From NCBI RefSeq assembly GCF_003334305.1, contig NZ_QOWS01000052.1: 3,595 nucleotides of DNA. One strand, written 5' to 3'. Positions 1 through 3,362 of the stretch are shown here, piece after piece; the stretch's first letter is position 1; each line of letters starts with the position of its first letter. The notes beneath the pieces are model-generated. The model was not told the DNA's origin and did no database searches. It was given only the letters and a program-made list of their open reading frames with translations. The translations under genes and the position numbers were made by a program. This DNA comes from Escherichia coli. GTDB taxonomy: Bacteria; Pseudomonadota; Gammaproteobacteria; Enterobacterales; Enterobacteriaceae.

Positions 1-135
1 TTACATAAGATCATTGATACTCAACGTATCGACATGATCATTGTTGATGAAGGCATTCCTGCGGATAGTCTGGAAGGCTTGCGAAAGGCTGGGGTTGAAG
101 TGATTCTGGTCGGGGAGCTCGCGTCTTCGCTGTGA
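1..135 (+). CDS. agaR: 3' end (last 44 codons plus TGA) of a DeoR-family sugar-responsive transcriptional repressor, AgaR-like; 5' part lies upstream of the window
   Basis: Frame 1 is open from base 1 to TGA at 133-135 and reads [44 protein letters not shown], a typical C-terminal end of a DeoR-type effector domain. The symbol rests on memory of E. coli AgaR and on convergent synteny with a garD-like gene; not verified by search. Confidence 0.55.
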
Positions 136-140
136 TTCAC

Positions 141-171
141 TATGCCCGATAAACAAGCGTTATCGGGCATA
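141..171. terminator. Perfect 12-bp inverted repeat (TATGCCCGATAA / TTATCGGGCATA, 7-nt loop) between convergent genes; probable bidirectional terminator
   Basis: 141-152 pairs exactly with 160-171. It lies between the + strand stop at 133-135 and the - strand stop at 198-200. There is no long T tract on either side, so the assignment rests on position and stem length. Confidence 0.5.
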
Positions 172-197
172 ATACAACTTAATGTATGAAGAGAATA

Positions 198-1354
198 TCA
201 GGCCACCGGTGCCGGGTTAAACACTGCCAGCTGGTTATGCAATCCCCATTGATCCGAGATGGTTTTCTTCTTCCCGCTGGCGACGTCGAGAATAAAGTGG
301 AACAACTTCCAGCCCACCTCTTCAATGGTCTCTTCGCCGGTAGCGATAGTGCCTGCGTTAATATCCATTAAATCAAACCAGTGGTTCGCCAGCCCGGTGC
401 GGGTCGCCATTTTAATGACGGGTACCTCCATCAGGCCGTACGGCGTACCACGGCCGGTCGTAAACACTTGCACGGTGATACCCGAAGCCACCTGTTGCGT
501 GCCACAGACAAAATCGCTGGCTGGCGTCGCGGCGTAAATTAATCCGCGTTTAGTCGGGTGTTGACCGGGCGACAGCACTTCAACAAGTGCGGTTTTACCC
601 GATTTAGCAATGGAGCCGAGTGCTTTCTTTACCACGTTGGCGAGGCCGCCCTTTTTGTTGCCCGGCGAAGGGTTGGCGCTGCGGTCGGTTTTGCCCATAT
701 CGGGATAGTTATCGTATCAGGCCATCTCTTCGAGCAGACGCCTGCCCACTTCTTCATTGATGGCGCGTGGCGTTAACAGATGAATGGCGTCGCGTACTTC
801 AGTGACTTCGGAGAACATCACCGTTGCGCCGCAGCGCACCAGCAGGTCAGAGTCGTAGCCGACAGCGCGGGGTTAGTGGTAACGCCGGAGAACGCGTCGC
901 TGCCACCGCACTGCATGCCCACCACCATCACTTCGCCACCGAAGTTTGGGTTCAGCGCAATATTATGGATGGTGCGAATTGGCACCACGGCGGCCGGTAC
1001 ATTAATCGCTACGCCACAGCCGTAGAGGTGGTTCAAGTCGACCACGCCGTCGATGCTCAGGTATTTCGGCAGCAGGTCGCGTTCGATAATTTTAACCACG
1101 TAGTCCTCAACGTCTGCCATGCAGTGCACGCTGGTGGTAATACCCAACAGGTTTTTGGTGCCCACGCTGCCGTCGGCGTTGCGGTAACCTTCAAAGGTGT
1201 AATCTTCCTGCGGCGGCTGCGGCTCCGGCACTTTGGTCGCCCGAGGCAGGGTGTTAAGCGGCGGCGCTTTCGGTAGCGTGACCGTGGATTCGTCGATCCA
1301 GCTGCCTTTGGCGACATCGCGTACCGTGTAACCGATAGCGAATGATTTCACCAT
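198..1354 (-). pseudogene. garD: Galactarate/altronate dehydratase family (GarD/UxaA-like) gene remnant, disrupted by an in-frame stop and a frameshift and apparently lacking N-terminal and internal segments
   Basis: ORFs 198-698 and 818-1450 on the - strand are in different frames. Both carry family motifs ([20 protein letters not shown]-terminal FNPAPVA; SWIDES, GYRNADGSVGTKN, HLYGCGV, MQCGGSDAFSG). Re-reading the gap in the downstream frame gives continuous protein-like sequence ([24 protein letters not shown]...LLEEMA) ending at an in-frame TGA (717-719 on +), six codons before MGKTD. The frame switch lies within 858-876. Sequence upstream of about 1355 has no family resemblance. Confidence 0.7.
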
Positions 1355-1516
1355 TATGAGGAAGGTTGTTATCCCTTTTCTGGCGTATTCGTCATTCCAT
1401 TCGTATCCCCGGTACCGGATGTTTATATCGTACAGTGCCGGTGCTGGCATGCTTTCCTGCAGGTCTGCACCGGTTTAACAAACAAAACTTAACAGAGTCT
1501 GAAGGAGTAGTATTCC

Positions 1517-1654
1517 GTGCAAATAACCGAAGCGTTACTTTCAGAGCCGGGAGATATCTGGCGTTTTGTTCAGCAGGCGGTGGACCACTGGCCGCGTCTG
1601 CTGGCAGTCCACTTCACGCGTCATTCGACCAGAGTAAATATTGATGATTACTAG
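1517..1654 (+). CDS. Candidate small ORF (45 aa, GTG start) with a strong Shine-Dalgarno; hypothetical
   Basis: GAAGGAG at 1501-1507 lies 9 nt before GTG at 1517. The ORF reads MQITEALLSEPGDIWRFVQQAVDHWPRLLAVHFTRHSTRVNIDDY with stop TAG at 1652-1654. It is below the length cutoff of the ORF track. No family recognised; it could be the N-terminal stump of a destroyed gene. Confidence 0.3.
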   Translation: MQITEALLSEPGDIWRFVQQAVDHWPRLLAVHFTRHSTRVNIDDY

Positions 1655-2127
1655 ATTCGTGTATTTTATCAGGCATTTTACTTGCGAATAAATCCCCTTG
1701 CTATCCAGCGAAACCACTCAGGTAGCTATTACCATATGTGGTAATACACTAGTTACAGGAAAAATATGCAAGTTCCGCAATACGTTGTGTGTTGCTCCTT
1801 AGCCAGGATCTTTTCTTCCATGCGAGATATGACAACAATTTTGAGGAAGGATGTTCGTAACTGGTAGAGTTACTACAACAAGCATGGGAGGCTCTGACTC
1901 TGACAGACATTGTACTGTGGAATGTTGTTACAGGTTGGGGCGGCAACCGTGCCAGGAGACCATGAGCCGTTCACGGCATTAAAGGCCACACTTCAGTCGT
2001 TTACATTCCCTATGGTGGCAGGCATCTTCCATTAAGGCGTCAGAGCGTTACCAACGTTATGTTGTCATGGCTCATCTTTCATAGTCGATGCTTATCTGGT
2101 GGCTGAAACTAGCCGCAGATAAAGAGT

Positions 2128-2561: not shown

Positions 2562-3344
2562 TCATTCGTCTTCTGAATCAGGTGTAATGATCTTTACAGA
2601 ACCATTCTGGCAGTGCGTAACATAATCTGCCGGTAACGGACGATCGCTAATCAGAACGTCAAATGCAGAGATCGGTGCGAGGCTGGCAGAGGCCACTTCA
2701 TCGAACAACGCGTGGCGGGCGAGCAAAATTTTCCGTAGTCCACGGTTCATCGCTTTACGCTTAGTGGCAAGATCTTCAGGGTTAAACCAGCTGACGCCAA
2801 AGTGATTATGCACACCGCTGGCGGAAATAAATATTTTTCGCGGATTGAGAGAGTCTAATGGCGAAGAGTTACTGGCATCGTAAAAAGCATCACTTCTGGC
2901 ACGATACGTACCACCACAAAGTATTGCTGTTACATTAGGCTTTTCATTCAACGCAACAAAGACGCGATGTGAGTAACAGATGCCGGTGAAGGTGATTGCA
3001 TCCGGGATCATGCTTATAACGAGTGGTATCTCCTGGCCATTATCAAAGAAGATCAGATCATTTTCATTAACCATTCCGGCAGCCAGAATTGCAATAGGTA
3101 AGTCATCACGATGATTTTTTGGAACGTCATGGATTACTGGCATGGATGGCGCGGGTTTATTCACCATTACAATATAGCCACCCAGTAGGGTCAGTGGCAG
3201 AGGTTCATCTTCCTGATGGAGATCGCGACGAATAGTCATTACAGAAACTTCCAGCATTCGCGCTGCGTCTTTCAAATGGATTCTGTCGGTTTTCTTAAGC
3301 AGTTCCATCAAACGTCGGATACGCTCTTTTTGCTTCGTTTCCAT
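2562..3344 (-). CDS. ygbI: DeoR-family transcriptional regulator, 260 aa (N-terminal HTH plus DeoR C-terminal effector domain); YgbI-like
   Basis: Intact 261-codon ORF in the track; the likely true start is the ATG at 3344-3342, with GGAG 9 nt upstream on the - strand. HTH signature IHLKDAARMLEVSVMTIRRDL near the N-terminus and DeoR C-domain features (DLIFFDNG, AILCGGTY, KIFISASGVH, FDVLISD). The symbol is from memory of the E. coli YgbI N-terminus (METKQKERIRRL…) and is less certain than the family. Confidence 0.85.
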   Translation of the reverse strand: METKQKERIRRLMELLKKTDRIHLKDAARMLEVSVMTIRRDLHQEDEPLPLTLLGGYIVMVNKPAPSMPVIHDVPKNHRDDLPIAILAAGMVNENDLIFFDNGQEIPLVISMIPDAITFTGICYSHRVFVALNEKPNVTAILCGGTYRARSDAFYDASNSSPLDSLNPRKIFISASGVHNHFGVSWFNPEDLATKRKAMNRGLRKILLARHALFDEVASASLAPISAFDVLISDRPLPADYVTHCQNGSVKIITPDSEDE

Positions 3345-3362
3345 CAACTCTCTCTCCGTAAG

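Follow-up and report, generated by a model that had tools for sequence, protein, structure and literature searches.

A partial, decayed and chimeric second garD on a mosaic genomic island of Escherichia coli

In the window analysed here, the whole stretch of 3,595 nucleotides of Escherichia coli DNA, a sequence resembling a dehydratase gene of the UxaA/GarD family runs along the minus strand and is broken at several points. We have asked whether this is a gene that has really been lost, whether it was the only gene of its kind in the strain or an additional copy, and whether anything keeps it in place. From the comparison of sequences we consider it very probable (about 0.95) that window 198–1372 on the minus strand is a non-functional, partial second garD (galactarate dehydratase) gene, carried on a mosaic island, decayed in a definite order and chimeric. 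It is ordinary gene debris hitch-hiking on a genomic island, already known as a pseudogene in RefSeq. The feature is the following:

198–1372, minus strand: garD-derived pseudogene (UxaA/GarD family remnant), corresponding to GarD codons ~59–523 minus 213–285, delimited by tblastn and by nucleotide alignment with K-12 garD

The GarD of K-12 (523 aa, from the K-12 locus L003) was used as the query for tblastn. Its residues 302–522 matched window 866–204 on the minus strand with an E value of 2e-145 and 93% identity, and residues 73–215 matched window 1336–908, also on the minus strand, with an E value of 1e-80 and 82% identity, while in a third frame a short match at 1367–1335 covered residues 59–69 (NLPHNGEIIRY). 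Pfam places the SAF domain of K-12 GarD at 22–92, GD_AH_second at 122–270 and GD_AH_C at 279–520, and within these limits the tblastn matches amount to significant homology of the remnant to both GD_AH_second and GD_AH_C. As a functional member of the UxaA/GarD family the remnant falls short in two respects, the SAF domain, since there is no start codon and homology ends at GarD codon ~58–59, and the continuous reading frame, since codons 213–285 are gone, two base pairs have been added at 865–868 and a TGA stands at 717–719. Two mechanical ORFs can be drawn in it, one of 210 aa (818–1450) and another of 166 aa (198–698) that begins at the native Met358. Neither is kept across lineages, because the reading frames differ between the copies that resemble the window (window-type) and those that resemble the island copy of strain UTI89 (UTI89-type). 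A preliminary description of this DNA, made from the letters alone, had proposed a UxaA/GarD dehydratase gene killed by several independent lesions, and the two long tblastn matches together with the lesions resolved below bear this out. The pairwise alignment with GarD that it had put forward as a check was run, and found the N-terminal and internal segments absent and the stop and frameshift present.

Nucleotide alignments, against K-12 garD and against the less degraded island copy of UTI89, resolved five lesions:

1370–1376, minus strand: 5' truncation point, where garD homology ends at about codon 58–59 (alignments and Pfam)
1335–1337, minus strand: junction left by the deletion of 11 bp (TATGGCGAAGT, flanked by TAT repeats); UTI89-type copies keep the 11 bp
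918–927, minus strand: junction of a 219-bp in-frame deletion, where one of two 10-bp direct repeats (TGGTGGTGGG) is left
865–868, minus strand: insertion of 2 bp (GC tandem duplication, CCGC to CCGCGC), with a frameshift at GarD codon ~301
717–719, minus strand: nonsense mutation, Trp350 TGG to TGA (tblastn and alignments)

The ~58 codons missing at the 5' end include the start codon and the greater part of the SAF domain, and the promoter has gone with them; the UTI89-type copies have the same 5' breakpoint and the same upstream flank as the window. The preliminary description was right in that the 5' end is missing, but not in the extent, which it had put at ~65 codons with a limit at 1355; about 58 codons are lost and homology reaches ~1372, the portion past 1355 sitting in another frame because of the 11-bp deletion at 1335–1337. 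This deletion, which shifts the frame at GarD codons ~69–73, was absent from the earlier list of lesions. The 219-bp deletion removed 73 codons, GarD 213–285, the GLGCE segment included, and the UTI89 copy keeps both TGGTGGTGGG repeats and the intervening sequence, 218 bp apart (219 before its own 1-bp deletion). It had already been noticed that GGEVMVVG runs into MQCGGSD with the GLGCE segment skipped, only that the gap, estimated at ~60 residues, is of 73 by alignment. Of the two lesions visible directly in the letters, the frameshift located within 858–876 is the GC duplication at 865–868, and the in-frame TGA at 717–719 is the one that replaces the TGG of Trp350.

As for the surroundings, a megablast search of 5,426 complete E. 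coli genomes found the whole window at 100% identity in ATCC 43896, except for an ISEc52 insertion, and at 99.5% in 21AH004. In the RefSeq annotation of these two genomes, one flank carries alpha-galactosidase-like ('enterotoxin'), MalY/PatB-like and malX-like PTS IIBC genes and then, towards the remnant, fragments of a tagatose-bisphosphate aldolase gene and an intact agaR. The other flank holds a 45-aa ORF, an ACT-domain pseudogene, a DeoR-family regulator (window 2562–3347), a ribokinase, a FucP-like permease and an aldose epimerase. The remnant sits therefore on a mosaic vpe/deoK island, between the vpe sugar-PTS genes plus agaR and a deoxyribose (deoK-type) operon, both flanks being of these types by RefSeq annotation, with gene names that rest on the products. 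The regulator, ribokinase, permease and epimerase we take to be deoQ, deoK, deoP and deoX, from their gene products. The remnant itself is annotated by RefSeq/PGAP, at 198–1365/1367, as 'UxaA family hydrolase' with the qualifiers frameshifted, internal stop, incomplete and missing N-terminus, and PGAP labels the locus as a pseudogene in every genome fetched.

Decay extends beyond garD in this region. The 45-aa ORF (1517–1654, plus strand), a 'UCP030791 family putative phage-derived protein' for PGAP, preserves the beginning of a gene that has otherwise decayed: a hypothetical protein of 170 aa, intact in MS14384 and UTI89, aligns to 1517–1726 (66%) and 1732–1896 (44%), with stops and a frameshift. 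An NCBIfam search with this 170-aa protein returned no family. Further on, at ~2332–2558 on the plus strand, an ACT-domain/acetolactate synthase small-subunit pseudogene (PGAP; frameshifted, internal stop) abuts the DeoR-type regulator gene, so that two intact operons enclose a series of gene remnants that fills 198–2560. This stretch is also a repeated target of insertion sequences, with ISEc52 in ATCC 43896 (L002 10260–11429; window ~2250), IS1A in Z1323CEC0013 (L086 2435–3021) and IS66-family elements in MS14384 and SW07163 (L085 2758–3021).

We have examined the substitutions for traces of selection. The window and the UTI89 island copy differ by 26 nonsynonymous and 5 synonymous changes, which gives a dN/dS of 1.69 (Nei-Gojobori), and the ratio between island lineages is at least 1 in both parts of the remnant. 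Against K-12 garD the values were 0.06 for the divergent part and up to 0.2 for the 3' part (the two parts are delimited below). Such a difference between 1.69 among lineages and 0.06–0.2 against K-12 indicates neutral evolution after the split: there has been no protein-level constraint on the island copy since the two lineages separated, and there was a constrained past before. Selection has been relaxed since the inactivation, the numbers of substitutions being small and compatible with neutrality.

These values weigh against a selected role, be it as a truncated or chimeric protein from ORF 818–1450 or 198–698, or as DNA, for instance as a stretch of homology through which the resident garD-agaR locus could recombine. 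The existence of the mechanical ORFs, the recombination of the 3' 500 bp with resident garD and the persistence of the remnant in ~9% of complete genomes speak for such a role. Apart from the dN/dS, the ORF structure differs between lineages, a promoter and terminator scan of window 1–1700 found no signal beyond chance, an Rfam scan of the window found no family, and the flanking vpe and deoK operons, both under selection, account for the persistence by hitch-hiking. We consider a selected role very improbable, and a residual protein function of the remnant unlikely.

Slightly less probable still is that the remnant represents the only galactarate dehydratase gene of the strain and that its carriers have lost galactarate catabolism. 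Losses of this kind do occur, since the resident garD is disrupted and galactarate use lost in EAEC 042 (PMC2808357). Here, however, the remnant lies between island genes and not at the gar locus. UTI89 has its island pseudogene at 1.095 Mb, adjoining the sfa fimbrial genes, and besides a resident garD at 3.499 Mb that is intact (1,572 bp, 523 aa, no internal stop) and located beside garP/garL/garR; with this intact gene UTI89 has no need of its island copy. Over the 5,426 genomes, the 5' 844 bp of K-12 garD, a region that the island copy lacks or matches at only ~78%, were found in 5,400, and the chromosome of ATCC 43896, a strain with a copy 100% identical to the window, contains two garD-3' matches. 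The island copy is redundant for galactarate function in UTI89, the one carrier in which resident garD was inspected directly, and statistically so in the rest, for which the evidence is the population count of garD 5' sequence. Being an extra copy, it would be blind to the galactarate growth test once suggested for it, which would say nothing about the island locus, and the remnant should not be read as a loss of galactarate catabolism in its carriers.

We have then followed the lesions across genomes. The segment 900–1520 takes in the truncation point together with the junctions of the 11-bp and 219-bp deletions; it was matched in 504 of the 5,426 complete genomes (~9%), in 499 of them over at least 80% of the query length. 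About 314 genomes matched at 99% identity or more and have the 219-bp junction (window type). Another ~190 matched at ~95%, and in this group the match starts exactly at the deletion junction, as the 219 bp are kept (UTI89, Nissle 1917, clone D i14 type). Nine copies were scored with diagnostic junction strings, six of them window-type and three UTI89-type; they come from complete genomes assembled independently, with hosts and countries that differ. The 5' truncation and the TGA were present in 9/9 copies. The 11-bp and 219-bp deletions appeared in 6/6 window-type and 0/3 UTI89-type copies, and the additional 2 bp in three of the six window-type copies (the window, L002 of ATCC 43896 and L086 of Z1323CEC0013), the same strings detecting no such insertion in L001, L085, L087 or any UTI89-type copy. 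The UTI89/Nissle-type copies have a TAG (Glu to stop) and a 1-bp deletion of their own.

Because the lesions are nested across lineages, the order of decay is established: truncation and Trp350 stop, then the lineage-specific deletions, and the 2 bp last. The 5' end was lost and the Trp350 stop gained at the beginning, both being common to every lineage examined. In the window lineage, the 11 bp and the 219 bp went next, through slippage or illegitimate recombination at direct repeats of short length (TAT and TGGTGGTGGG respectively), and the GC duplication is the most recent gain, in a sub-lineage. The sister lineage, of UTI89/Nissle type, decayed independently by way of its TAG codon and 1-bp deletion. 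Nested in this way, the lesions might be used to mark lineages of the vpe/deoK island.

This distribution leaves hardly any room for the view that the gene is otherwise intact and its stop and frameshifts are artefacts of sequencing or assembly, an explanation excluded by the recurrence of the lesions across independent assemblies. The 2 bp, missing from some close copies, could by themselves resemble an indel error, and nothing else speaks positively for it. Yet they are found in three independent assemblies, the TGA and the truncation are in all nine copies, the truncation-spanning segment is matched in hundreds of genomes, and if the 2 bp were removed the copy would still lack its 5' end and 73 codons and carry the 11-bp frameshift. 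The lesions are thus reproducible in independent genomes, as is asked of a true pseudogene. A long-standing loss of function and not a sequencing error had been suggested from the start, and with recurrent and nested lesions, neutral-like substitutions and a concurring PGAP label we agree, with the correction that the +2 frameshift is polymorphic among strains. Expression by recoding, with the TGA read as selenocysteine or read through plus a programmed frameshift, has in its favour the coexistence of an in-frame TGA and a frameshift and can be considered negligible, because the start codon and 73 internal codons are gone, the TGA stands in place of a conserved Trp codon from which it differs by one G-to-A substitution, the frameshift is polymorphic among copies and the Rfam scan found no SECIS or frameshift element in the window.

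The remnant of this second garD is not homogeneous in origin. Two parts can be delimited:

701–1372, minus strand: divergent ('foreign-type') part, with 77–80% nucleotide identity to the resident garD of K-12 and UTI89
198–700, minus strand: E. coli-like 3' part, ~95% identical to resident garD and probably a recurrent target of gene conversion

In 90-nt windows against K-12 garD the identity was 73–87% up to nt ~1060 and 92–99% from ~1080 to the stop, and against the resident allele of UTI89 it was 77–79% in the divergent part and 94–95% in the 3' part. The remnant is, hence, chimeric, ~78% identical to E. coli garD upstream of window position ~700 and ~95% downstream. The copy of Z1323CEC0013 is particularly informative. 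Over L086 491–1061, equivalent to window ~198–700, it is identical to K-12 garD nt 1081–1572 at 492/492 positions, and in the divergent region it is identical to the window at 420/420 and 211/211 positions over the aligned segments, with all the window-type lesions present. The breakpoint of the tract, at K-12 nt 1069–1077 (window ~693–701), coincides with the older boundary. This is a fresh ectopic gene-conversion tract, from a resident garD into the island copy. We infer that the E. coli-like 3' part of all the copies has been kept or refreshed in the same way, by ectopic gene conversion from resident garD; alternatively, the hybrid could have arisen in an E. coli chromosome before its capture by the island.

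The divergent part would come from an unsampled enterobacterial lineage, its 'foreign origin' being deduced from the divergence. A donor search with the repaired UTI89-type protein gave, among the best 80 loci listed, maxima of 89% amino-acid and 81.5% nucleotide identity. Among the matches listed, the nearest relatives of this part were in Kluyvera, Phytobacter, Superficieibacter, Citrobacter and others, and the best 80 included no Salmonella locus, despite published suggestions that deoK came from Salmonella. The garD 3' region of two loci labelled Escherichia, L065 (GTDB 'Escherichia coli strain SCPM-O-B-8794') and L079, had 88.6% and 91.2% identity to the E. coli-like segment of the island, for 95% in K-12; both probably belong to cryptic clades of Escherichia and not to E. 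coli in the strict sense.

On the other side of the stop codon the remnant faces agaR across a short spacer:

1–135, plus strand: 3' end of agaR (intact island copy, 274-aa form; PGAP, with an NCBIfam AgaR/DeoR match), converging on the garD remnant
141–170, no strand assigned: hairpin with a 12-bp stem in the spacer between agaR and the garD remnant (fold -20.4 kcal/mol, z = -4.0)

The island agaR is 98.5% identical to that of K-12, and the aldolase fragment plus agaR are 97–98.7% identical to K-12. The spacer between agaR and garD, as well as the five-codon extension of AgaR, are homologous to the resident locus of UTI89, and by alignment so is the hairpin at 141–170, which is likely the remnant of a bidirectional terminator; the consensus terminator scan made no call there because there is no T-run. 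Spacer, AgaR extension and agaR identity indicate that the left patch is E. coli-type chromosome in a layout that has no toxin-antitoxin (TA) pair, and this left part is joined inside garD to the divergent garD.

Two layouts are found at resident loci. The K-12 type has the toxin-antitoxin pair prlF-yhaV between agaR and garD and an AgaR of 269 aa, while the resident locus of UTI89 (L091, NZ_CP062228.1 3499136–3501583) is devoid of prlF-yhaV and has a 51-bp spacer with the hairpin and an AgaR of 274 aa. From this difference, the TA insertion appears to have replaced the last agaR codons. Escherichia albertii (L048) has a gap of ~1 kb between agaR and garD as in K-12, and Kluyvera and Phytobacter have none; agaR directly convergent on garD was also found in Kluyvera, Phytobacter massiliensis and Pseudocitrobacter. 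We had considered that the TA-less junction was specific to the island and that its E. coli-like flanks were two conversion tracts halted by the prlF-yhaV heterology, on the basis that only 505 genomes matched window 90–270 contiguously. This was rejected, the UTI89 resident locus also being free of prlF-yhaV, and the count of 505 was misleading because megablast failed to bridge the diverged spacer. In the islands of UTI89/Nissle type (L004 4432–5002) agaR is frameshifted and the adjacent PTS IIBC gene truncated, and in the window type agaR is intact; the vpe-side module is therefore decaying in the UTI89/Nissle lineage.

A further possibility, doubtful although it keeps more credit than the selected role considered above, is that the remnant and the adjacent agaR together act as a partner for ongoing ectopic recombination with the resident agaR-garD locus. 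If exchange also ran in reverse or by crossovers, new alleles of resident garD/agaR could originate from the island patch, and, were the partnership real, inversions and deletions between the island and the gar/aga region could be driven by the patch. As it stands, the locus offers a modest natural case of ectopic conversion that involves a core gene and a pseudogene on an island. It also shows debris carried along inside a mosaic pathogenicity island, and in this respect has little weight beyond good annotation.

The same locus is annotated as a pseudogene in RefSeq under CS031_RS14075 (ATCC 43896), AC6I3E_RS08160 (21AH004) and IFE20_RS05195 (UTI89). The PGAP annotation does not break the decay down into single lesions or put these in order, and says nothing of chimerism or gene conversion, and in everything else there is no difference; what we add to the label is the exact list and order of the lesions, the coexisting intact garD in UTI89 and the evidence of ectopic conversion. 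At a larger scale, vpe and deoK operons are found side by side on E. coli pathogenicity islands (PMC6455142, ORFs 34–37 and 39–42; PMC5382810; PMC7545054). The PAI of AL862, the LAC PAI and ROD 40 of NCTC 86 have like gene content flanking on both sides. In these three papers the garD remnant goes unmentioned.

With respect to the genuine garD of E. coli (b3128; PDB 6U7L, N-terminal domain 3LAZ), the remnant is clearly derived, with the order GD_AH_second to GD_AH_C still recognisable, but differs in the lack of a start codon, the loss of most of SAF and of residues 213–285, two frameshifts and a nonsense codon, in its location on an island instead of adjoining garPLRK, and in its 5' two-thirds, which reach no more than 77–80% nucleotide identity to any E. 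coli garD. Another broken garD is that of EAEC 042, where the resident gene at the gar locus is split into two CDS and a loss of growth on galactarate has been measured (PMC2808357). In both cases a garD has been broken by mutation in pathogenic E. coli. In EAEC 042 it is the resident gene that is broken, whereas here it is the redundant island copy, and UTI89, the sole carrier inspected directly, has its resident gene intact.
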